Origin: Longimicrobiales bacterium
Lineage (GTDB): Bacteria; Gemmatimonadota; Gemmatimonadetes; Longimicrobiales; Gaopeijiaceae
DNA: 64,000 nt
NCBI GenBank assembly: GCA_965219445.1
Contig: CBDCNQ010000005.1
Coordinates: 672,001-736,000, forward strand
Reading direction: 5' to 3'
Below are positions 37,538 to 54,072 of the stretch, piece by piece; the first letter of the stretch is position 1, and every line of letters starts with the position of its first letter. The notes below the pieces were generated by a model. It had not been told where the DNA came from, did not search any database, and worked only from the letters and a program-made list of their open reading frames with translations. Made by a program: the position numbers and the translations under genes.

Positions 37538-38011
37538 TTACTGTTCCCCGCCCCCGGCGTCCCCCCACATGATCATCTGCCTCAGCTGGTCCATCGACCT
37601 CGGCAGTTCGGTCTCGCCCGCTGGAAAGTCGTTCATCTGAAGCAGGTAGGCGATAATGTCGACGTAGGTCTGCTCGGGTAGACCCCCCGGGTTGTCGTCG
37701 GGCATGGAGTAGAGAACGAACTCATAGATGTCCCCGATCGCCCGGTTGGTCCAGCGTCGCTCGAAACTTGATCCCGCGAACTCGGAAGACGCATGGCAGC
37801 TGATGCAATTGTCTCGGAAAAGTCCCTGGCCGCGGCTAGCCTGCGCGGCCGTATAGAAGGCGCCCCCCGATGAAGTCTCTGCAGCCGGAGCGGCAGCGGC
37901 AGCCGGCGCAGCCGCCGTCGGAGCGGCCGCGCTTGCGGGCGCGCTCTCCTGCGTGGATGCGCATCCTGTGAGCAACACCACCAATGCAGCATGAGCGAGA
38001 AGATTTTTCAT
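37538..38011 (-). CDS. Monoheme cytochrome c lipoprotein
   Basis: Lipobox LTGC, Ala/Pro linker, CISCH and distal SMP. Confidence 0.9.
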   Translation of the reverse strand: MKNLLAHAALVVLLTGCASTQESAPASAAAPTAAAPAAAAAPAAETSSGGAFYTAAQASRGQGLFRDNCISCHASSEFAGSSFERRWTNRAIGDIYEFVLYSMPDDNPGGLPEQTYVDIIAYLLQMNDFPAGETELPRSMDQLRQMIMWGDAGGGEQ

Positions 38012-40728: not shown

Positions 40729-41961
40729 ATGTCGAAGAGTCCGCTCGTGATTTGCGTTCTGGTCGCTCTGCTAGGCCTAAGCCTCCCGGCCGTGGCCCAA
40801 CAGAGCCCGGCTTCTCTCCCCGACGGAGAGGGCAGGGCCCTGGTAGAGGACGTTTGCACCCGGTGCCACGGCGTCAACCAGATCACCGGCTCCGCCGGGT
40901 ACGACACGCCCCAAGGGTGGCAGGATGTGTTCGCCACGATGATTAAGCTACCGGACGCTCAGGCCACCCGAGTGGCAGAGTATCTAGCGGCGCATTTTCC
41001 CGACCGGGCTGACCGGCGCCCCGTTCTGATGGCGGGCGACGAAACCATCAAGATCACGGAATGGATCGTTCCCACGCTGGGGCAGCGCTCACGTGACCCG
41101 GCCGAGGCACCCGACGGCTCGATCTGGTGGACGGGGATGTGGGCCAGCCTCGCGGGACGGCTCGATCCCGCGACAGGCGAGATGGAGGAATTTCTGCTCC
41201 CGGAGACGGCACGCCCACACACGATCGTTCCCGATGAGGCCGGCAACATCTGGTACACGGGGAACAGCAACGCCACCGTCGGCAGGCTCGATCCTCGGAC
41301 CGGTGAGATCACCGAGTACAAGACGGAGGCCCGAGATCCCCACTCCGGGGTCTTCCACCCGAACGGGATGCTCTACTTCACGGCCCAGCAGGCCGGGATG
41401 CTCGGCCGCCTGAACCCGAAGACGGGGGAGGTCACGGAAATCTCGTCGGAGCCGCGCCCATATGGGATCAAGGTGGACTCGAAAGGGACGGTTTGGGTCG
41501 CGTTCAACGGCACGAACAAGATTGGGGCGCTCGATCCGGAGACGATGGAGGTCCGCTATTACGAGGTGCCGAACGAGCGTTCGAGGATCCGGCGGCTCGA
41601 TATTACGAGCGACGACATGATCTGGTACGGGAACTCCACCATGGGCCGCATCGGCCGGCTCAACCCGGAGACAGGTGAGATCAAGGAGTGGCCCTCCCCA
41701 AGCGGGGCGGATTCACATCCGTATGCGTTTGCCGTCGTGGACGACGTTATCTGGTACAACGAGGCGGGTATGAGGCCGGACGCGCTCGTCCGTTTCGACC
41801 CGAAGACAGAGCAGTTCCAGAGTTGGGCCCTCCCCTCTGGCGTCGGCATCGTCAGGAATATGTGGGTGACGCGGGAGGGAAATCTCCTCATCCATCAGTC
41901 CAGCACGAACCGCGTGGGGATCGTCGAAATCTCAGGGAGTCGCATGACGCTCGATCGTTGA
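40729..41961 (+). CDS. Cytochrome c domain fused to a Vgb (virginiamycin B lyase)-like beta-propeller
   Basis: Signal peptide, LPDGEG…CTRCH, then repeated IWY/GRLDPxTGEI propeller blades. Confidence 0.8.
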   Translation: MSKSPLVICVLVALLGLSLPAVAQQSPASLPDGEGRALVEDVCTRCHGVNQITGSAGYDTPQGWQDVFATMIKLPDAQATRVAEYLAAHFPDRADRRPVLMAGDETIKITEWIVPTLGQRSRDPAEAPDGSIWWTGMWASLAGRLDPATGEMEEFLLPETARPHTIVPDEAGNIWYTGNSNATVGRLDPRTGEITEYKTEARDPHSGVFHPNGMLYFTAQQAGMLGRLNPKTGEVTEISSEPRPYGIKVDSKGTVWVAFNGTNKIGALDPETMEVRYYEVPNERSRIRRLDITSDDMIWYGNSTMGRIGRLNPETGEIKEWPSPSGADSHPYAFAVVDDVIWYNEAGMRPDALVRFDPKTEQFQSWALPSGVGIVRNMWVTREGNLLIHQSSTNRVGIVEISGSRMTLDR

Positions 41962-42136: not shown

Positions 42137-43363
42137 TCACATCCCATCCGGATAGAGGGGCCCACCCAACCCCTCCATCATCTCAGCAGAGACCGGTTCC
42201 AGGCCCTGGAAATTGAACTTCTGCGCTCGTCTGCCTACGTTGACTTCCGCGGTGTAGAGATTGCCCGCCGGATCGGCAACCATGTCGTGAAGAACGTAGA
42301 ACTCTCCGGGCCGGTCGCCAACTTGCCCGAAGTGGGCGAGGGGCTCCAACGTCTCGCGATCGAACACCACCACCTCGTGGTTGCTTCGTTCGGCCAGGTA
42401 CAGGTATCGTTGCTCTGGGTCCGCCGAGAAGCCGATTCTGCTAGCCGACATGTGGGCGGTGGCGACCGCCGTGTAAAGCTCCGGAATGGGCCTTCCATGC
42501 GCCCTCTCGTTGGCACGCGCGGCGAGGACTTCTGGATCCAGCTCGGTCCGCCCGATGAAGACCTCCCTTATGTAGTCACCGTCCACCGTAAACACCTGAA
42601 ACCGCATATTGCGTCGGTCGGCCACGTACACGAGTCCGTCGTCCGAGACCTGCACCCCATGCACGTTATTGAACTGCTCGGGTCGTGACTCGTCCAACAT
42701 TTCGCCTTCGGCCGGGTCGGTCGGAGCGTTGCCGTAGGCACCCCACATCCGCTTGTATTCCCCGGTCTCCGCGTCGAAGACGATGATGCGCCTGTTCCCG
42801 TATCCGTCCGCGACGAAGAGCTCGTTCGTCAGCGCATAGACGTCCAGATCGGCAGCTCGGTTCACGTTGAGCGTGTCCGTGTTGCCCCGGCTTTGGTTGG
42901 CCCGTCCGATCTGCATGACGAACTCACCATCGGTCGTGAACTTCAGAATCTGATCGTCCCCCGCACCGCTACCGGCGATCCAGACGTAGTTGTCGTGATC
43001 CACATAGATTCCGTGCTCCGTGGCGGGCCATTCGTAGCCCTGCCCCTCCCCGCCCCAGCTATTGATGAGGTTGCCGTCCGTGTCGAACACCATGACCGGT
43101 GGTGCTGCTCTGTCCACTTCTTCAGGATCGACCGTCCGTGGGCGAGTGAGAACCCAGACGTTGTCATCCGCGTCCATTCCCAGGCCAGACGTGATCCCAA
43201 ACACCCAATCGTTCGGGATTATCGGCCAAGAGGGATCAACCAGGAACGAGGGTGCCATCAGCTCACCCACGTCCGTGGCTTCGCCGGCGTCATCAACCCC
43301 TCCTCCGCATGCCACGACGCCCAACGCCATCACGCAGGCACCCAGCCATATCTTCCTCTTCAT
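42137..43363 (-). CDS. NHL-repeat lipoprotein, peptidyl-alpha-hydroxyglycine lyase (PAL)-like
   Basis: Lipobox VVAC; VWVLTRP, EHGIYVD, VADGYGNRRI, VHGV, VADRRNMRFQVF and LHDM motifs. Confidence 0.8.
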   Translation of the reverse strand: MKRKIWLGACVMALGVVACGGGVDDAGEATDVGELMAPSFLVDPSWPIIPNDWVFGITSGLGMDADDNVWVLTRPRTVDPEEVDRAAPPVMVFDTDGNLINSWGGEGQGYEWPATEHGIYVDHDNYVWIAGSGAGDDQILKFTTDGEFVMQIGRANQSRGNTDTLNVNRAADLDVYALTNELFVADGYGNRRIIVFDAETGEYKRMWGAYGNAPTDPAEGEMLDESRPEQFNNVHGVQVSDDGLVYVADRRNMRFQVFTVDGDYIREVFIGRTELDPEVLAARANERAHGRPIPELYTAVATAHMSASRIGFSADPEQRYLYLAERSNHEVVVFDRETLEPLAHFGQVGDRPGEFYVLHDMVADPAGNLYTAEVNVGRRAQKFNFQGLEPVSAEMMEGLGGPLYPDGM

Positions 43364-43744
43364 GTCTTCTTCTCTCAAGGGAATGTACAAAGCGTTCATC
43401 AAGGCAAAGACAATGTTCATCCAGAACCGGAGGTAGGGCGCTCCGGGTATCAACAAGAACTCCAAAGCTACAGAGATGTTTGGAGGCAGATCCGAATCGT
43501 CAACCGAACCGATCGACTTAGGCGCTGTCAGAGTCCCCCACGAAAGACGACGGTCTTTTCCTCGTCCACCTGAGTCATGAAAGCCTGACCTTCCCGCAAA
43601 CGCGGAGCCGCTCGTCCGAGTGATGGTAATCGGCGCTAGGCTTCAACGGGCTGTACATATATTCAAAGCATGTCGCCAGCCCTTATCTGGAATGGGGACA
43701 CACAGCCGGGATCACACCCCCGGCTGTGTGTCCCCTATGCCGAT

Positions 43745-45082
43745 CTACTGCCCACCCTGCTGGGCCACCTGCTGCTGCCTCTGCTCCAGAAGCTTTTCCC
43801 TCTCCTGGAGCATCCACTCGTAGTCCTCCTCCTCCATCGAGACGAACCCGATATGCATGTGAGACATATCGTCGGCGCTACGCCTGCCAAAAATCACCCA
43901 CTGGTCCGGATCCGGGTTCCCCGGTCGCTCAGTGTTGTCATACCAAGCGGTCACCATAATGACCGTACCCGTGGGCAGCAGCGGCATCACATGATCCTCA
44001 TACGTGTAGGTGATATGCCAGTTAAACTGCCAGCCGGTCCGGCTCAGAATCTGGACACGACCATCCGGATAGATCGCCTCGATCAACTGCCCCGCACCAT
44101 GTGTATGCTGATGTCCCCGGACGCTGTAGATCATGCCCGGTTTCTGTAGCACGGTGACGCCCTGCGTCACTATTTGTCCGTGGGGCGGAATCACGATCTC
44201 CTGGGCCGCTGGTCCCTCGATGTTCCGGATGGAGGTGAAGCTCTTTCGAATGGACTTGAGCCGCGGCTCTGCATCCTCCGGCCAGAACCACATGCCGACC
44301 TCAAGAAATGCGTCTTCCACTGCCTCGATCCCGTCCGGGACGTAGTGGATGTTGAATCCGACCTCGAGCCCTGGCTCGATGATCCGGCCTACGTTCGGGG
44401 GAAAGACGTCATAGGGCTTCCCGATTGCGAACTTCGAAATGTTCGAATTGCCATGATGCGTGACCGGACGGCTCCCGGGGGAGGGCTTGGTCTCGATGGC
44501 CCTGGCATAGCGCGGCTTATCGAGTCCCTCCACCGTGACTGTCGGCTGCCACCACTGGTCCAGCCCAGTGGCTCGCACCGTATAAGGATCGGAACGAATG
44601 ATCAGATCGGGCGGGCGTCCGAACTCCTCCTCGAGCTGCCACACCGTCGCATCCGGCCACTTCACGGGCGGTGGCATGTCCGCCGGGTCGCCCAGCGGCG
44701 CGCCCGCATCGGCCCAGCGGCTGATCGTCGCGATTTGCTCGTCGCTCAGAGAGAGATCGTCCTTGAACTCCTGGATCCCCACCGTCCGGTCGATGTGCCA
44801 AGGGGGCATGAAGCGGCTCTCGACGCGCTCCTTGATCAGTGGCGCCCATTGTGCCGCCTGCTCATACGTCATCAGCGACATCGGCGCGATCCCGCCCGGC
44901 TGATGGCACATCTGACAGCTATTCTGGAGGATCGGGGCCACGTCCCTCGCGTAGGTGACCGAATTGTCCGCCGCCTGCGAGACCGCCTGCCCGGGAAGGG
45001 ACAGCAGGGCGGCCACAGCCAACAGCGGCGTTGCTACCCGGATGCTTGACCCCATCCAGTGGTGTGTTCTCTTCTTGCTCAT
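43745..45082 (-). CDS. Secreted heme c / copper type II (PHM/DBH-like) monooxygenase fusion
   Basis: Signal peptide, VAPILQNSCQMCH…MPPW heme domain, then THHG, NIHY, GHQH and DDMSHM matching the CuH/CuM ligand order. Confidence 0.75.
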   Translation of the reverse strand: MSKKRTHHWMGSSIRVATPLLAVAALLSLPGQAVSQAADNSVTYARDVAPILQNSCQMCHQPGGIAPMSLMTYEQAAQWAPLIKERVESRFMPPWHIDRTVGIQEFKDDLSLSDEQIATISRWADAGAPLGDPADMPPPVKWPDATVWQLEEEFGRPPDLIIRSDPYTVRATGLDQWWQPTVTVEGLDKPRYARAIETKPSPGSRPVTHHGNSNISKFAIGKPYDVFPPNVGRIIEPGLEVGFNIHYVPDGIEAVEDAFLEVGMWFWPEDAEPRLKSIRKSFTSIRNIEGPAAQEIVIPPHGQIVTQGVTVLQKPGMIYSVRGHQHTHGAGQLIEAIYPDGRVQILSRTGWQFNWHITYTYEDHVMPLLPTGTVIMVTAWYDNTERPGNPDPDQWVIFGRRSADDMSHMHIGFVSMEEEDYEWMLQEREKLLEQRQQQVAQQGGQ

Positions 45083-45098
45083 GTGTCGCTCCTGTCGC

Positions 45099-46061
45099 TT
45101 ATGGTGTGACCGTGACCCTTACATACGCATTCGTCCAACAGCAATGCTGCACCAATCCGGCAAGATTCTCTATTGCCGTAACGCGCAGCATATACTCTCC
45201 AGGCTCCTCAAATGTCGCAAACGTGGTCACCTCGCCCGGGTCGGCTCCCTCCAGCACGGTCTCTCGCTCGCTGAAAGTCACCTGGCCAGCCCCCTGGTGG
45301 TGATACCACGTCACGATCATACTCTCCGCATGCTCCGGTGCGTTCCCTTGCGGCGGGCGCGCTCCCTCCTCCGTCCCCGCAGGCTCCGGCTCGACGAAGA
45401 CTCTCAGCGGTAAGGGAGCCCCCACAGCTACGGTGAGCGGACCCAGGGTGATGCCGCGCCGGCCTTTTGTCTCCGGGCCGGACGGGTCGAATTTGAGCCC
45501 CGCAGCGACCGGTGCGTTCGTGAGACTCACCGTGTCGTCTATCGCATAGCCCTCTATCGTCGCTCGCCCCGGAACGGAATATGTCTGGCCCCCGTTGCGT
45601 AATGTCCAAACGACGTCCCCCCGATAATCATCCGGCACCCTTACGACGAAAACGCTCTGGTCCCTGTGCCTGCGACCGTTGTCCTCGGGTGCCGGATAAA
45701 AATGCGTCGGCTGGCCGCCGTTGAATTCACTCGGCTCGATGAAGTTGTCGGGCCCGATCGGGATATCGAAGGTCTCGTCATAATTCATATTGAAGTAGCT
45801 GTAGCTGAGAAGGATCGTGCCAGTACCCGGCTTACGGGTCCAGCCTTCAAAAAGAGGAATGACAGCCTGTCCATGGCTCAACACGTTCGCATGAGGAAAG
45901 GGAGAATAAAATGGGCTCCTACCAACTACTGTGAGCCCTGTCGCTGGGTCCTGCGGCTCACTTCTTGCGCGACCTGGTCGCGTTTGTGCCTCGAGGGGTG
46001 TCCAGCTCGCAAGCAGGAGCCATGCAATCAAACCCCCGCCGAAAAAATACCGTGCCTTCAT
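45099..46061 (-). CDS. Secreted hypothetical protein with Ig-like C-terminus (…HCCWTN…)
   Basis: Signal peptide, FEGW…YFNMN…IPIGPDNFIEP…QPTHF and ATFEEPGEYMLR. Ends 16 nt before the monooxygenase start. Confidence 0.7.
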   Translation of the reverse strand: MKARYFFGGGLIAWLLLASWTPLEAQTRPGRARSEPQDPATGLTVVGRSPFYSPFPHANVLSHGQAVIPLFEGWTRKPGTGTILLSYSYFNMNYDETFDIPIGPDNFIEPSEFNGGQPTHFYPAPEDNGRRHRDQSVFVVRVPDDYRGDVVWTLRNGGQTYSVPGRATIEGYAIDDTVSLTNAPVAAGLKFDPSGPETKGRRGITLGPLTVAVGAPLPLRVFVEPEPAGTEEGARPPQGNAPEHAESMIVTWYHHQGAGQVTFSERETVLEGADPGEVTTFATFEEPGEYMLRVTAIENLAGLVQHCCWTNAYVRVTVTP

Positions 46062-46453
46062 ATTACAGCTGCCGCTCTGTTTAGGTCTCCCACTCCCGGC
46101 TCGGGAACTCGGCCTAAAAGCCCCCCCCAATTTATTACAGGTTTGGATTCGTATCAAATTCGACCTCGTGCAAGGGGACGGCAGGTGCGTGTTGCATTAT
46201 ACTCGCGGCCTCGCAAGTTGAAACCCTGCTGCCACGAGTCATTCAAGCGCAACGCTTGATCATATCTGTCGACTCGCCATGCTGTCAAACCGCCTGAGGA
46301 CCGGATGGGATGCTCTGGTTCCGAAAGCTGAGCGTGGGTGTTTGGCGTGTGTCAGCGAACAGCGGGGAAGAAGAAGAAGAAGAAGTCAACATCATTGTCG
46401 GCATTCGCATGATCGACTCCTCGAGGAAGCCCCTGAGCGTGATCGGATGACTT

Positions 46454-47755
46454 TCAATGGATGATGCCGGCCAAACCCGCCTCCGAGACGACGACCAACA
46501 GCGCGCGTTGTATGGCCAGATGGCCGTCCTCGTTGATCCACCACTCACCGGGGGCGTGACTGCTGCCGCCCGTGCCGCCTCGGCTCAGAGTGACGGCCGG
46601 AATCCCTAGAGCGATGGGGATGTTAGAGTCCGTGGAGGAGCGTGCCAGCCTGGTAGAGACATCGAACTGGGCCGTAGCGGCGGCCGAGCGTTGGATCACG
46701 GGAGTGGACGGGGGCAGCTCACCCGAGGGCCGGTTTCCGATCCGGTCCAACTCCACCTCGAGCGCCGGGCCTTCCCGGCGCAACGCATTCTCACCCTCCA
46801 AGCCACGGTTCATCGCGTCTGTGAAGGCCCGCTCGATGCGCACCAGGCTCTCGGGACTCTCCGACCGCATGTCGACTTCCATCCACGACTCGGCCGGAAT
46901 GGCATTGACCGACGTTCCTCCTCCGATCCGCCCCACGTTGTAACTCGTCGGGGGTCCGGTGCGCGTCAGCGTGTCTGCCGCGTCCTGGAAAAAACCGACT
47001 GCCCTGCTCAGGGCGTGCGCAGGATTGGCCATCCCGAACGCGCCCCACGAGTGGCCGCCGGGCCCTGCGAACGTCACGCGGTAGCGAATCGAGCCCAATC
47101 CTCGGGTCACCAGGCGGTCCAGCCCGCCGCCATCGATGGAGATCCACACATCGATCGGGTCGGCCCCTTCCCGGAAGAGGTGCTTCATGCCGCGGAGGTC
47201 GCCCAAGCCTTCCTCTCCCACGGTGCCGATGAAGAGCACGTCGTCGGACGTTTCGACGTTGGCCTCCTCCATCGCTCTCAAGACGGTGAGTACCACGACG
47301 AGGCCTCTAGTGTCGTCGCCCACGCCCGGGGCGTAGAGCGTGTCGCCCCGCATTCGTACTGCGACGTCGGTTCCCTCGGGGAAGACCGTATCCAAGTGAG
47401 CGCCGAATGCCACGGTGCGCCCCCCGCCGCGTCCGCGCCTCAACCCGACGGCGTTCCCCTCAGCATCGACCCACACACTGTCGGCTCCCGCTTCTCGGAG
47501 AAGCTCGGCGAACCGCGCTGCGCGCGCCTCCTCCATAAAGGGTGGGGCTGGGATTTCGGTGAGCTCGATCAGGAGGTCCATGCCCCACGGGTCGAGATCC
47601 TCCACCCGACTCAGTGCATTTCGCACCGGCTGTTGAGCCGTCAGGATCTCCATCTCCTCGAGGTATTCGGGCTCGATGGTTTGCGCCGTTGCGGATGACG
47701 CAGGAAGAGCGGCCAGTAAGGCCATGAAGGCGAGCGGAGCGGCTGGTGCTCTCAA
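46454..47755 (-). CDS. Secreted M20/M25/M40 metallo-hydrolase
   Basis: AHLDTVF, PGVGDD, GEEGLG, GGHSW, NVGRIGGGTSVNAI and SHAPGE motifs. Confidence 0.9.
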   Translation of the reverse strand: MRAPAAPLAFMALLAALPASSATAQTIEPEYLEEMEILTAQQPVRNALSRVEDLDPWGMDLLIELTEIPAPPFMEEARAARFAELLREAGADSVWVDAEGNAVGLRRGRGGGRTVAFGAHLDTVFPEGTDVAVRMRGDTLYAPGVGDDTRGLVVVLTVLRAMEEANVETSDDVLFIGTVGEEGLGDLRGMKHLFREGADPIDVWISIDGGGLDRLVTRGLGSIRYRVTFAGPGGHSWGAFGMANPAHALSRAVGFFQDAADTLTRTGPPTSYNVGRIGGGTSVNAIPAESWMEVDMRSESPESLVRIERAFTDAMNRGLEGENALRREGPALEVELDRIGNRPSGELPPSTPVIQRSAAATAQFDVSTRLARSSTDSNIPIALGIPAVTLSRGGTGGSSHAPGEWWINEDGHLAIQRALLVVVSEAGLAGIIH

Positions 47756-47866: not shown

Positions 47867-49042
47867 CTAACGCGACCATTGCCGCCTCAACCGAAACGTG
47901 ACGATCGCGAGAAGTACAGCAAGGAGCACCGCCACACGTGCCCACGTTCCGGTGAGTCGCCGTGAGAGGACAGTCTCCCTTTCGTCGACGGCAAGCCGCC
48001 TCTCCCCCGGGTAGTCCACGGAGAACAGGCCGAACCCAGGGCGGAGGTCCAAGACGAAGGTGAAGGGCCGCGTCATGTCCACAGCCGGGTCGAGTAGGAG
48101 AACCCTCAACATCCGAACCTGACCGTCGAGCTTTCCCGCCCGGGGCGGGCCGAATAGGAGGACCCCGGGCGGCGCCAGACCCAGGGTGTCACCGCCCTGC
48201 ACAATCGAGAGCCGCCCGAGGTTGAGAGCCCCGGCCGAGGGCCCGTCCACGCCGGCCAGAACGAGATGCCGCTCCTGGGCAAGGGGCCCCGCCCGCTCTA
48301 GCGCCTGAGCCAACATCTCCGACCCGATCAGGAGCTCCGCGACCGCCTCGTCCCTAAGATAGACTAGGGTGACATCGGCAGCGGTCCGCTCTTCGTCCAG
48401 GACGAGGATCTGCTGCACCAGCCCCCGAAAGAGCATCTGCGTCCAGGACAGCCGCTCGAGTTCACCCAGCGCAACCGACACCGGGTCCAAAAGGGGCGCC
48501 TCCGTGGCGGAGGACACCGATCCAAGACGGTACGCCAAAGCCACCTCTCGGGCCGCGTTCCGTATTCCTCGGGACGTGGCATCGACGGTGATCGTTGCGC
48601 CCGTGATGCCATCCACATCCCGCCGTACCTGAAACGCGTCCAGAATACTCTTCCCGGTGAACTGCTCCTGGAATCCAGGGGTTGCGAGGAAGTCACCGCG
48701 GCTGCTCCGGAGCGATTCGACATAGCGGACCACGACGATCCCGGTGAGTACACCTCTCAGGTCCATCCCGACGAGTACCTCGATGGGCCCGTTGAATCCC
48801 ATCTGTTCGGGCGGCAGATCAGAGGTGAGGAAGGCGTAACCGACCAGGGTCTCCTGTCCGGATACGGGGTCACTTCGGTACGCCTCGAAGACGGGTGGCT
48901 GGCCCTGCCGGTCCGTGAACCGATCGGCTTCGGGCACCACCCTCTCGAGTAGGGTCAGCCACTCCTCGGGTGTGTCCTGAGCCGAGGACGAGACCGGGGC
49001 GATCAATGTCAGAGCCCAGGCGGCCAGAACGGTCACGAGCAT
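47867..49042 (-). CDS. FMN-binding (NosR/RnfG/NqrC-type flavinylated) membrane-anchored protein
   Basis: GFNGPIEVLVG and DVDGITGATIT (ApbE flavinylation motif); signal peptide and one C-terminal TM helix; no Fe-S cysteines. Confidence 0.75.
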   Translation of the reverse strand: MLVTVLAAWALTLIAPVSSSAQDTPEEWLTLLERVVPEADRFTDRQGQPPVFEAYRSDPVSGQETLVGYAFLTSDLPPEQMGFNGPIEVLVGMDLRGVLTGIVVVRYVESLRSSRGDFLATPGFQEQFTGKSILDAFQVRRDVDGITGATITVDATSRGIRNAAREVALAYRLGSVSSATEAPLLDPVSVALGELERLSWTQMLFRGLVQQILVLDEERTAADVTLVYLRDEAVAELLIGSEMLAQALERAGPLAQERHLVLAGVDGPSAGALNLGRLSIVQGGDTLGLAPPGVLLFGPPRAGKLDGQVRMLRVLLLDPAVDMTRPFTFVLDLRPGFGLFSVDYPGERRLAVDERETVLSRRLTGTWARVAVLLAVLLAIVTFRLRRQWSR

Positions 49043-49069
49043 GGCCGACCGAAGCCCCAACGGCAGCGC

Positions 49070-49861
49070 TCAGAGAGGCTTGTCCGGGTTGGCGATGGTA
49101 CGCCACATGTGCGCGGACGGACTGTTGTCGTAGCCGAGCCCTTCCGCCGGACTCTTGAAGTTTCGCCCGATGATGTCGACGAATGGGTCGATGGAGAGCT
49201 CAACACCCTCTTGGAAGCCGTACAAATCGTTCACCGTGATAAGGCGAGATTCCATATACCATCGGTGGCGGCGCGCCTCCTCGTAGGCTCGCCGGATGTA
49301 GTCGGGTGGTACGTAATCCTCGCCGAAGATCCGGTTGTAGAGATCGAACGGATAGTCGTAGCCCACGGTATCATCCGGGTAGAAGCGGAGGGCCCCGTGG
49401 TAGCGGATGCCCCAGCTGATCCGCTCGTCGACGTACGGCTCGTAGAGCTGGGCGCCCCACCAACCGTGGTCGGCCCTGATCAGCCCCTGAACCCCATCGT
49501 GTAGCAAACAAGCCATCACGGTGCGTTCAGGCTGCCCGGTCTCGAGCGCGTGGGTGGCGCTTTGGAGGCAATGGTTGCCCCCCGTGAGCCGAAGTCGGAA
49601 GAAATCGAGGAAGGTGGGGTTGTCCGGCATGGGCTCGAGCGGTTCGGCCCGCGGGAGAAGAAGTCTGCCGGTGCCGCGGGGGGTTTGGGCCTGCTGCTCC
49701 TCGGCCTCTTCGGCCTCTTCGGCCGTCACGGACGTCGTTTCGGGCTTTTCGAGCAGGTCCATCATGTAGTGCTCGAGCGCCTCTGCCTTATCCTCCGGAT
49801 CCATGAATTCCAGCGTCCCGACGCCCAGCGTGGCCAAGAAGGCTCGGCGGTCGACTTCCAT
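49070..49861 (-). CDS. HD-domain protein, PhnZ/MIOX-like, with twin-arginine-like N-terminus
   Basis: DRRAFL; NHCLQSA, ACLLHD, DHG…GA, IRYH and NDLY motifs. Confidence 0.6.
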   Translation of the reverse strand: MEVDRRAFLATLGVGTLEFMDPEDKAEALEHYMMDLLEKPETTSVTAEEAEEAEEQQAQTPRGTGRLLLPRAEPLEPMPDNPTFLDFFRLRLTGGNHCLQSATHALETGQPERTVMACLLHDGVQGLIRADHGWWGAQLYEPYVDERISWGIRYHGALRFYPDDTVGYDYPFDLYNRIFGEDYVPPDYIRRAYEEARRHRWYMESRLITVNDLYGFQEGVELSIDPFVDIIGRNFKSPAEGLGYDNSPSAHMWRTIANPDKPL

Positions 49862-51653: not shown

Positions 51654-52101
51654 AAGCCCTTGCGGTCAAGAGCACGGAGATAAACAGGAGCAAGGCTCCG
51701 GGCGGCACAAGAATTACGCCGACGCCGGGATCACCTCCGTAAATGAACACTCCTCCGAGAAAGAAGCCGAGGGGGATGAGAGCCAGCGCGCCCAGGAGAC
51801 ACCTCGAGGCGAGAACTCGGCTGGACGTCTTCCAGTCGGGCGTCAGGCGGATCGACATCGCGAAGACCAGGTTGAGAACGGAGAGCAGGGTGCCGTGAGC
51901 GTGCGCGAGGGTCCATACCAGGCGGCGCGTGCTATTGGAGACGTCGAGGTAAAAGCCGACCTTGAACCCGTGCAGGGTCTCCAGGACCAGCCCGAGCGTG
52001 AGGAACAGGAGGAGGGACCACCATCCCACCCGGAGATGCAATCGGGAGGTATCCGCAAGGGCTGGGGAGCCTTGCCCCGAGGCGCCGGATTGGCCACTCA
52101 T
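51634..52101 (-). CDS. Four-helix membrane protein coupled to the multiheme cytochrome
   Basis: ATG overlaps the cytochrome stop; LETLHG and TLAHAHG His residues in or near TM helices. Confidence 0.75.
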   Translation of the reverse strand: MSGQSGASGQGSPALADTSRLHLRVGWWSLLLFLTLGLVLETLHGFKVGFYLDVSNSTRRLVWTLAHAHGTLLSVLNLVFAMSIRLTPDWKTSSRVLASRCLLGALALIPLGFFLGGVFIYGGDPGVGVILVPPGALLLFISVLLTARAFRESAE

Positions 52102-54035
52102 TCGATGATCGTCAACGGCCTCTGGTCCCGTTCCGCGAGAAGTCGTTCCCACTCGTCAAAGTCGATCGCAGCGTCCTCGTCGATCAGAAGATGGGCCCCA
52201 GCCCTCCCCGCTCCGCCGGCCTGGATCCACCGCCGCAATGCTTCCCTGGCCTTTTCCTCACGCTCCGAACCCGAGGCGATAAAGTCGTACTCGAAGTCTT
52301 GAAACCCCGGGAAGGTCCCGATGGATCGATACGCCACCTGCCGGGTCGCGGAATATGGATCCATGAGAAGTTGCGTTAGATACGGAGCCATCCAGGTCTG
52401 GCCGGACGCCTCTCGAGCCGCATCCCAACCCAGGTGCCAAGCGAGGATCGTCCGCTGGGCCGCGTCCCCCTTCATAACCCAGAGAATTGAGGCGGCGATC
52501 GATCGATCATCCTCGCCCATCTCCACGAGAGGCTGCCCGTACCATTCGTTGAGGGTTTGGTTGGTCCACTCCATCGTCTCATCGAGGTGGCAGAGATTGC
52601 ATGCATTGGGGCGCCCACTCTCCAGCGAGACCTGAGCGCTGGGACTGTCGATGCGGTGACTGCGTATCGCCGAAAAGAGGCCGTATGTCGTATGCGGCAT
52701 GTGACAATTCATGCACTCGCTACCAGAAGACTCCGGAAGGTGGCGAGTGTGCTCCGAGATCTCATCCGCATAGTCCGTATGGCAACCCAGGCACGATCGG
52801 TTCCCGGTCACATCGGGATCCAGTTGCCCGTCCGGCGCCTCATACTCGTGCATCGAATGGCACGATAGACACGTCATGTCGTCGGTGTGACCCGGGGATT
52901 CGAGGTGCCCGTTGTACTCCCGCCCCGTGACCCGAATCGTTCCATCGCGCCAATACCTGCCTTCGAAGGCGGCGGGTTCGGTCTCCAGAAACTCCAGCAA
53001 CAGTGGATCTTCGGGATCCTCCGTGTAGAGGAACACCGACATGTGCTCGGCCAGCTCATCTCCCGGACGAAACGGGACTCCACTCCTCCTGAACCCCTCC
53101 TTGTCTCGCCACTCTCCGAAGCTGTGACATTGAGCGCACGTCTCGACGGAACGCCGTGGCTCGAGCTTCGCCGGGTTGGCGATCGTCGGATCGGGGGGAT
53201 CCTCCCCCTGCAACTTGCGAAAGTACCGCAGGTAACGCCGCACCGGCGACTGATAGAAACGGACGTGTTGCTCGGCCGGACCGTGGCAGGCCTCACATGC
53301 GATACCCAACTCCACGGTCCGCGTGTCGAAACTGTCGAAGCTCTCCGAAGTCCGCGGCTCGGTCGCGACCGAGTGGCACTGAGAGCAGGTCGCATTCCAG
53401 CGAAGGGGCCCCTGAACGGAGGTACTCGGCGGGCTGATAAACGAATCCTGATTCGGAACCCATCTCTCCTCTTGGATCATCCAAATCCAAGGAAGCTGAA
53501 TGAGTGCTCCATCATCAGGGGCCAGGGATCCTTCTCCCCCGTCCGGTCTGCGTATCCAGTAGTTTTGCATGTGATGAGAGCCCGTGGCCATCACCACCCG
53601 CCCCTCGATCCGCGGCGGCGTCTCGGGCCAGTTGGGGTCGATGAGCTCCATGAACCAGAGCGGTTGCTCGAACCAAAGTGGATCGGGCATCTCAACCCAG
53701 ATTTCGTCGTCCCGGACATCGAATCGATACTGGAACCCGCGGTCCTCCAGGATGATGTCATCGAACGTTGCCAGCACCGTGGAAGGCGTCGCCACTTGGG
53801 TCATGGTCCGATGGTAGGAACGGTGCCAAGCGTCGTATTGAGCCGGATGGCATGACTGGCACGTGACCGAGGTCGTGAACCCTTGCCCGGTCGCCTGCCC
53901 GGGAAGGTCCTCTTCAAGTGCGTCATCTACGTCCGGGCTCCGGAGAGCCCCCGCGCCGACCGTGATTACCGCACAAACGATGAAGATGATCCGGTAAGGG
54001 GGATCCGCGGAGCGTGACTTCGGACTGTTGGCCAT
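52098..54035 (-). CDS. Multiheme (8 CxxCH) c-type cytochrome, C554-like N-terminus
   Basis: CQSCH, CSQCH, CEACH, CAQCH, CLSCH, CLGCH, CMNCH and CNLCH; N-terminal TM anchor. Confidence 0.92.
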   Translation of the reverse strand: MANSPKSRSADPPYRIIFIVCAVITVGAGALRSPDVDDALEEDLPGQATGQGFTTSVTCQSCHPAQYDAWHRSYHRTMTQVATPSTVLATFDDIILEDRGFQYRFDVRDDEIWVEMPDPLWFEQPLWFMELIDPNWPETPPRIEGRVVMATGSHHMQNYWIRRPDGGEGSLAPDDGALIQLPWIWMIQEERWVPNQDSFISPPSTSVQGPLRWNATCSQCHSVATEPRTSESFDSFDTRTVELGIACEACHGPAEQHVRFYQSPVRRYLRYFRKLQGEDPPDPTIANPAKLEPRRSVETCAQCHSFGEWRDKEGFRRSGVPFRPGDELAEHMSVFLYTEDPEDPLLLEFLETEPAAFEGRYWRDGTIRVTGREYNGHLESPGHTDDMTCLSCHSMHEYEAPDGQLDPDVTGNRSCLGCHTDYADEISEHTRHLPESSGSECMNCHMPHTTYGLFSAIRSHRIDSPSAQVSLESGRPNACNLCHLDETMEWTNQTLNEWYGQPLVEMGEDDRSIAASILWVMKGDAAQRTILAWHLGWDAAREASGQTWMAPYLTQLLMDPYSATRQVAYRSIGTFPGFQDFEYDFIASGSEREEKAREALRRWIQAGGAGRAGAHLLIDEDAAIDFDEWERLLAERDQRPLTIIE

Positions 54036-54038
54036 GGT

Positions 54039-54072
54039 CAAGATCGGAAGAGAACACAAGATCGGAAGAGAA
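54039..54072. repeat. 16-bp direct repeat containing AGATCGGAAGAG
   Basis: CAAGATCGGAAGAGAA at 54039-54054 and 54057-54072. Confidence 0.9.

Follow-up and report, generated by a model that had tools for sequence, protein, structure and literature searches.

Does this locus hold a bacterial counterpart of the two-step pathway by which animals amidate peptides? The DNA analysed, hereafter the window, is a stretch of 64,000 nucleotides in genome G000 (G000:C5:672001-736000). From its sequence alone, the original prediction had read three co-oriented genes as a system resembling peptidylglycine alpha-amidating monooxygenase (PAM), with its copper monooxygenase part PHM and its lyase part PAL. The three minus-strand open reading frames (ORFs) were confirmed where they had been placed, and all of the quoted motifs were located. 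They encode an exported protein of 445 aa, very likely a heme-dicopper monooxygenase of the PHM/DBH fold (43745..45082, minus strand), an exported protein of 320 aa, here called the partner (45099..46061, minus strand), and a PAL-type NHL beta-propeller lipoprotein of 408 aa with its ATG at 43363 (42137..43363, minus strand). The partner and monooxygenase genes are 16 nt apart, and the monooxygenase and NHL genes 381 nt. All three proteins have signal-like N-termini, and a lipobox (VVAC) can be read in the NHL protein. Three features described below had escaped the original prediction: Arg322 of the monooxygenase, an inverted repeat and a sigma-70-like site.

Enzymes of the PHM/DBH type hold two coppers about 11 Å apart and carry out O2-dependent hydroxylations; PHM is driven by ascorbate and acts on peptidyl-Gly. 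PAL, a six-bladed NHL propeller, cleaves alpha-hydroxyglycine amides to an amide and glyoxylate. The window system resembles PHM in fold and residues, and PAL in residues and a predicted propeller fold. PAM itself is a different case, since the PHM and PAL parts, joined in the bifunctional enzyme, are encoded here by separate genes.

The putative monooxygenase and its partner

The N-terminal part of the monooxygenase is a cytochrome c domain with the motif CQMCH at 56-60 (C56, C59 and H60) and M92 as the likely axial ligand. CxxCH was found in 117 of 118 close homologues and M92 in all 118. The copper core follows. Its CuH set consists of H209, H210 and H246, in THHG (208) and NIHY (244), and these residues are kept in 117, 118 and 118 of the 118 homologues. 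The CuM set consists of H324, H326 and M406, in GHQH (323) and DDMSH (404). M406 is invariant (118/118), and so is H408 in the close family. The motifs go beyond chance: among 100 family copies in four genomes, 96 retain all ten heme and copper ligand residues.

An AlphaFold2 model, based on the window protein and 117 of the 120 listed homologues, reached a predicted local distance difference test score (pLDDT) of 91 and showed a cytochrome c domain followed by a PHM/DBH core. The top Foldseek matches were human DBH (E 3.5e-11) and then entries for rat PHM (E 3.7e-11). With an independent aligner, the copper core matched 1SDW with Z 16.4 and a root-mean-square deviation (rmsd) of 3.6 over 241 aligned residues. 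The N-terminal domain matched the monoheme cytochrome PccH with a middling Z of 7.1 (rmsd 1.9, 76 aligned). The structure prediction supported the claimed PHM-type fold, with all ligand positions kept, and the CxxCH, the distal Met and the cytochrome match did the same for the fused heme c domain.

By sequence, the window protein is only 12-16% identical to PHM. Single-sequence searches of Pfam, NCBIfam and PDB and the close-family profile did not detect the copper core, and neither PF01082 nor PF03712 matched the window monooxygenase at E 0.1. PF03712 is present in relatives (13-14% of the members of some clusters). The core was detected only by the fold searches and by a wider-family profile of 72 diverse members, 71 of them picked from 150 representatives. 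This profile found human DBH (E 9e-10) and, with E 6e-9, rat PHM, and placed HH, QxHY and RxHxH in register with both. DBH was by a small margin the best match in Foldseek and profile searches alike. Counted along the profile alignment, PHM R240, H242 and H244 fall on R322, H324 and H326. M406 probably equals PHM M314, as judged from the ends of the structural alignment; the profile alignment stops earlier.

The window protein shares with PHM (PDB 1PHM, 1OPM and 1SDW) the two-subdomain fold, the HH+H and HxH+M ligand sets, the export and the Arg two residues ahead of the first CuM His (R240 in PHM, R322 here). Unlike PHM, it is bacterial, is fused to a class I cytochrome c and has a dedicated immunoglobulin (Ig)-like partner. 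The disulfides of PHM are absent from the window monooxygenase, whose only cysteines are the two that bind heme. DBH (PDB 4ZEL) has the same catalytic core and likewise an N-terminal accessory domain before it, in its case a DOMON domain.

In PHM, R240 forms a salt bridge with the C-terminal carboxylate of the substrate, according to PMC12164859. The corresponding Arg322 was present in 118 of 118 close homologues and in only 6 of the 72 wider-family members, and the Arg type forms one clade in a quick tree (95 in the Shimodaira-Hasegawa-like approximate likelihood ratio test). Unlike the window protein, DBH has Gln at this position in the profile alignment, and the bacterial clades of the Gln and Glu types are more DBH-like there. 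Across the 100 copies, position 322 is occupied by Arg in 33, Glu in 26, Gln in 22 and other residues in 19.

The monooxygenase family is large, with 3,204 clusters at 50% identity (E up to 1e-30). G000 has 20 full copies, and 2 to 33 were counted per genome across 12 genomes of the genus. Named relatives come from metagenome-assembled genomes of Gemmatimonadota, Acidobacteriota and Gammaproteobacteria, and members of the wider family carry the annotation cytochrome c, redoxin or Cu2_monoox_C. The wider bacterial cytochrome c-PHM family has the same heme and copper core, but many of its members carry a fused redoxin, and the window subfamily has a Cys-Cys partner instead. Some family members (P0241, P0244-P0246 and P0247-P0258) are tandem double enzymes or fusions to other domains, among them redoxin, PDZ/aspartyl protease, GDSL, TPR, fatty-acid-hydroxylase and Ig domains. 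Searches of open full-text papers listed no study of a bacterial cytochrome c-PHM enzyme.

The partner is the constant neighbour of the monooxygenase. Neighbourhoods in GTDB genomes were counted for the best 80 of 559 confirmed loci, and the partner gene was adjacent and co-oriented in 76 of them. All 15 partner copies of G000 lie beside a monooxygenase. Among 31 genomes, 16 had both genes, one had only a weak monooxygenase copy and none had the partner alone. In four proteins (P0271, P0275, P0276 and P0285) the two are fused. The constant unit is therefore the monooxygenase plus the partner, as these counts show.

The partner model is all beta (pLDDT 90), with an Ig/PKD-like C-terminal half. 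Its best structural match was a generic Ig-like fold (Z 9.9, rmsd 3.0, 111 aligned). No Pfam or NCBIfam match was obtained, and matches were limited to generic Ig folds, with the N-terminal half barely tested; an Atlas search gave unnamed clusters only. The motif HCCWTN (306) holds vicinal cysteines, Cys307-Cys308 (HCCW, 306-309), which were present in 118 of 119 partner homologues. Three divergent partner copies lack the Cys-Cys pair (G000:C3:154960-158499 and C5:1390693-1391667), and their monooxygenases are Glu-type. They offer a natural test of the role of the Cys pair.

When the partner and the monooxygenase were modelled together with heme, the complex scored 0.87, against 0.02 for the best control. 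Of 157 solved pairs, 116 attained the mark applied to this score, and of 215 mismatched pairs, 2 did; this calibration is rough here, where heme was included and custom alignments were used. The runs shared at least 87% of contacts, with a partner pLDDT of at least 86. On the monooxygenase side, the predicted interface is formed by loops of both copper subdomains (~174-181, 242-244, 291-307 and 390-404). On the partner side it is formed by the residues directly preceding the Cys pair. From these models, the adjacency and the fusions, the partner is likely a bound subunit of the monooxygenase. It represents an uncharacterised protein family and a predicted second subunit; PHM has none.

The PAL-type lipoprotein and its possible linkage to the monooxygenase

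The NHL protein matched the NHL repeat with 40.9 bits (cut-off 20) and rat PAL with E 4.5e-10. Its motifs are LTRP (72), EHG (116), ADGYGN (185), VHG (234), ADR (248) and LHD (358), with R74, H117, Y188, H235, D249, R250, H359 and D360 as key residues. A profile of 17 sequences aligned with rat PAL (3FVZ) over positions 62-375 (E 5e-24), including the three His, the Tyr and both Arg. The non-enzymatic NHL domains of TRIM71 and Thin scored slightly above PAL against this profile, but in fragments. H117, H235 and H359 align with the zinc-binding His of rat PAL, and Y188 and R250 with its catalytic Tyr and Arg.

Bacterial PALs are known in vitro. One of them, ExiPAL of Exiguobacterium, with H95, Y178, H210, R225, H309 and D310, was assayed on alpha-hydroxyhippurate, and the natural role of bacterial PALs is called unclear (PMC10900485). 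The NHL protein matches ExiPAL in residue set and spacing, including the His-Asp pair and the His-to-Arg spacing of 15. With every catalytic residue in line with rat PAL and ExiPAL, the PAL-type active site claimed from the sequence is intact, and the lyase is probably active on carbinolamides. Unlike PAL, the protein is a stand-alone lipoprotein and one of 39 NHL paralogues in G000 (12 close and 27 looser). Most of the looser ones have His in place of the PAL Tyr.

Linkage between lyase and monooxygenase genes was assessed for the 100 monooxygenase copies of the four congeneric genomes, merged into 69 loci, of which 6 mixed ones were set aside from the tests. Of the 23 Arg-only loci, 11 had an NHL gene within 6 kb, where 2.8 were expected; of the 40 non-Arg loci, 5 had one, where 4.6 were expected (Fisher p 0.003). 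For close PAL relatives the counts were 4/23 (0.9 expected) versus 1/40 (1.2 expected; p 0.055). Genes for pyrroloquinoline quinone (PQQ) dehydrogenases showed a similar bias, with 11/23 versus 9/40 loci (p 0.051). These p values overstate the difference because the genomes are congeners. The NHL link recurred in 11 of 15 Arg groups (at least 70% identity) versus 5 of 31 other groups. At the GTDB loci, NHL neighbours were found for 14 of 35 Arg-type, 4 of 35 Gln-type and none of 9 Glu-type copies. A close PAL relative was present in 16 of the 17 monooxygenase-bearing genomes, and co-oriented clusters with PQQ and PAL-type genes occur at L146 and L147, two loci picked for that proximity.

The commonest third neighbours at the GTDB loci were PQQ dehydrogenases, found within 6 kb of 36 of the 80, versus 19 for NHL genes. 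No PQQ gene occurs within 75 kb of the window locus. G000 has 36 PQQ-dehydrogenase-like ORFs, and three congeners (G005-G007) have 35-49 PQQ matches each. At six loci (L009, L010, L012, L013, L015 and L058), in Gammaproteobacteria and Gemmatimonadota, the partner, an Arg-type monooxygenase, a cytochrome c-fused PQQ dehydrogenase and an NHL propeller form recurrent co-oriented clusters. The propellers of L009 and L012 carry a fused metallo-beta-lactamase-fold domain and have Glu where PAL has its Tyr.

In the window, a perfect inverted repeat of 17 bp (43694..43735, minus strand) starts 9 nt after the monooxygenase stop codon. It folds at -58.1 kcal/mol (z -6.3, 0 of 200 shuffles), has no U-tract and is absent from the intrinsic-terminator listing. 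It is possibly a terminator or an mRNA-stabilising hairpin. It was rejected as a repeated element, as G000 has no other copy.

Further evidence came from sequencing runs of near strains, in which the trio stays together. In run X6 it has the same order, with the lower spacer reduced to ~100 nt. Metatranscriptome contigs of X15 and X16, from a near strain with different flanks, bridge the lyase and monooxygenase genes at even depths of 17.5 and 18, and lend weak support to their link. Because of these different flanks, the low cover of the genes on either side in the RNA runs cannot serve as a control. Coverage from the RNA runs ends at 46251, beside the predicted start site, which was rejected as evidence, since the contigs continue with unlike sequence.

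A number of observations weigh against coupling of the two enzymes. A close PAL relative lies within 5 kb of only 5 of the 100 monooxygenase copies, and 12 of the 23 Arg loci have no NHL gene within 6 kb. A distance of 2.4 Mb separates the closest monooxygenase (69%) from the closest lyase (67%) in G103, and in G006 the monooxygenase nearest to the 58% lyase is ~87 kb away. In four genomes, close PAL relatives were found and a monooxygenase was not; G017, which is 88% complete, is among these and has 10 such copies. Many of the NHL neighbours lack the catalytic Tyr, with the Tyr type present by motif at about 10 of 19 loci. Near the monooxygenases of G000, NHL genes were enriched 4.1-fold, PQQ-dehydrogenases 4.8-fold, DUF5916 5.1-fold and amidases 8.3-fold, in a partial all-against-all search that included shadow ORFs and gave 1.06-fold for the remaining families together. 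As several families are equally enriched, the Arg clade may simply live in catabolic islands, and because Arg marks a single clade, the effects of residue and ancestry are inseparable. Within the window, the strong hairpin separates the monooxygenase and lyase genes, and the RNA-run contigs, which may contain DNA, show neither strand nor a single transcript. Finally, H408 and H410, counted from M406, occupy the positions of Asn316 and Tyr318, which contact the substrate in PHM, so that the substrate pocket differs from that of PHM.

A fixed three-gene operon was rejected, given the unlinked closest relatives and the few copies with a close PAL gene. Of the co-occurrence expected by the original prediction, the monooxygenase-partner linkage stood and the fixed three-gene system did not; the enrichment of PAL-type genes at Arg loci is support that had not been available to it. 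The lyase would be a loosely linked, interchangeable member of the system and no fixed part of an operon. No lyase fusion was found for the window family, in a search for PHM-PAL fusions among 169 proteins, including 20 long forms, for which the search was weak. In 11 congeners, no trio orthologue was found at the 77-85% DNA identity of the flanking genes.

Surrounding features of the locus

Upstream of the partner gene and downstream of the neighbouring M20 gene, a sigma-70-like promoter candidate was found (TTGACA-18-TATGAT, 46259..46288, minus strand, 11 of 12 consensus matches). Two such sites were found against 1.2 ± 1.0 expected, so it is a consensus match only. The gene at 46454..47755 (minus strand), 392 nt from the partner gene, encodes an exported M20 amidohydrolase, as had been read from the sequence (PF01546, E 2e-16). 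Its orthologues occur at 81-85% DNA identity in G003, G006 and G009, which have no such trio orthologue. In G006 the orthologue is 5.3 kb from another Arg-type copy, in convergent orientation, and one contig joint of run X17 bypasses the M20 gene. It was rejected as a member of the system, being shared vertically with congeners without trio orthologues, and is probably an incidental neighbour.

Upstream of the M20 gene, on the same strand, lies a gene for a membrane-anchored FMN-binding protein (47867-49060, minus strand; PF04205 above cut-off), which is like the N-terminal part of NosR and RnfG and is a possible electron donor. NosR serves a copper enzyme, N2O reductase. An HD-domain protein with a Tat-like leader and weak matches to oxygenases of the PhnZ/TmpB type, possibly an exported diiron oxygenase, is encoded at 49070-49861 (minus strand). 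Convergent on the PAL-type gene is one for an exported cytochrome c fused to a propeller of the virginiamycin B lyase type (40729-41961, plus strand; PF24684 above cut-off), another heme-plus-lyase design. A multiheme cytochrome of 653 aa (52098-54059, minus strand) and a small monoheme cytochrome c (37538-38011, minus strand) are also encoded. At L134, a relative of the multiheme cytochrome appears from the sequence to adjoin the closest monooxygenase orthologue.

Proposed pathway, alternatives and significance

The trio may carry out a PAM-like, coupled C-N cleavage in the periplasm, and this is the explanation that we favour, tentatively. Its purpose would likely be catabolic, because one genome holds 20 monooxygenase and 39 NHL paralogues, and the substrates would be N-acylglycines or Gly-ended peptides. 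In this scheme the heme c would stand in for ascorbate and pass electrons from periplasmic donors to the coppers. The donors would likely be PQQ and quinohemoprotein dehydrogenases, which often flank the family, or the respiratory chain. The partner is predicted to sit on loops that belong to the two copper subdomains, and the residues before its Cys-Cys pair to lie at the interface. Arg322 would anchor the terminal carboxylate of the substrate, while O2 bound at CuM would hydroxylate the carbon beside the amide nitrogen of an N-acylglycine or Gly-ended peptide. The membrane-anchored zinc lyase would then split the resulting carbinolamide into an amide and glyoxylate.

It is doubtful, though plausible, that the monooxygenase and its partner instead hydroxylate another compound that bears a carboxylate, whose alcohol or aldehyde product might go on to PQQ dehydrogenases, and that the PAL-type gene merely shares the same mobile catabolic islands and has a substrate of its own. 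The greater frequency of PQQ than NHL genes near the loci fits this (36 against 19 of 80), as do the equal enrichment of several expanded families, the unlinked closest relatives, the four genomes with PAL and no monooxygenase, and the hairpin between the genes. However, the NHL enrichment is limited to Arg-type loci, with the non-Arg ones at chance, and recurs in 11 of 15 groups, and the window locus has no PQQ gene within 75 kb. The PAL site also needs a carbinolamide, which by established PAM chemistry (PMC12164859) an Arg-type PHM would produce.

The complete His3 and His2Met set and the PHM substrate Arg, all in register, speak against a function other than oxygenation, as do the solved enzymes that top both fold searches, which are monooxygenases. 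A copper oxidase, dehydrogenase or redox relay, whose heme c would carry electrons from copper to the respiratory chain, is accordingly unlikely. Sequence does not reveal which way the electrons flow, the Cys-Cys pair of the partner is unexplained and the monooxygenase has no PF01082 or PF03712 match, all of which would suit such a protein. Least probable is a biosynthetic role, in which the trio would mature a specific exported Gly-extended peptide, a signal or natural product, as animal PAM does. The catalytic residues are the same as in PAM, near strains keep the trio intact between flanks that are different, and RNA-run contigs bridge it. Yet no candidate precursor was seen in either spacer, as neither contains a spacer-confined minus-strand ORF of at least 20 aa ending in Gly, and in run X6 the lower spacer is only ~100 nt long. 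Nor does a precursor family recur among the neighbours of the 80 loci, where ORFs of at least 150 aa were clustered, and 2 to 33 copies per genome with dehydrogenase neighbours fit catabolism.

The Arg-clade-specific link to PAL-type genes, the partner fusions and the predicted heterodimer were worked out in the present analysis. The electron route to the two coppers of PHM/DBH enzymes is still debated (PMC12164859). Enzymes of this type have been studied in animals; a bacterial form that carries its own heme would give a spectroscopic handle on that route, and bacterial hosts could be used to express it. The switch between Arg, Gln and Glu at the Arg240 position offers a substrate code that can be tested across a family with thousands of clusters. 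Bacterial PALs serve as biocatalysts (PMC10900485), and the question of their natural role would be answered if their substrate came from an Arg-type monooxygenase.

Extending the favoured PAM-like explanation to the whole clade is possible, if more speculative. Each of the Arg-type heme-dicopper monooxygenases would then pair with a Cys-Cys Ig-fold subunit as a heterodimer. Together with PAL-type lipoproteins and PQQ dehydrogenases they would make up a periplasmic PAM pathway that reduces itself, present in tens of copies per genome and breaking amide-blocked organic matter. If so, the orphan bacterial PALs would have their natural partner in this clade. It would also provide a PHM that needs no ascorbate and can be produced recombinantly, and a candidate for the bacterial origin of peptide amidation in animals.

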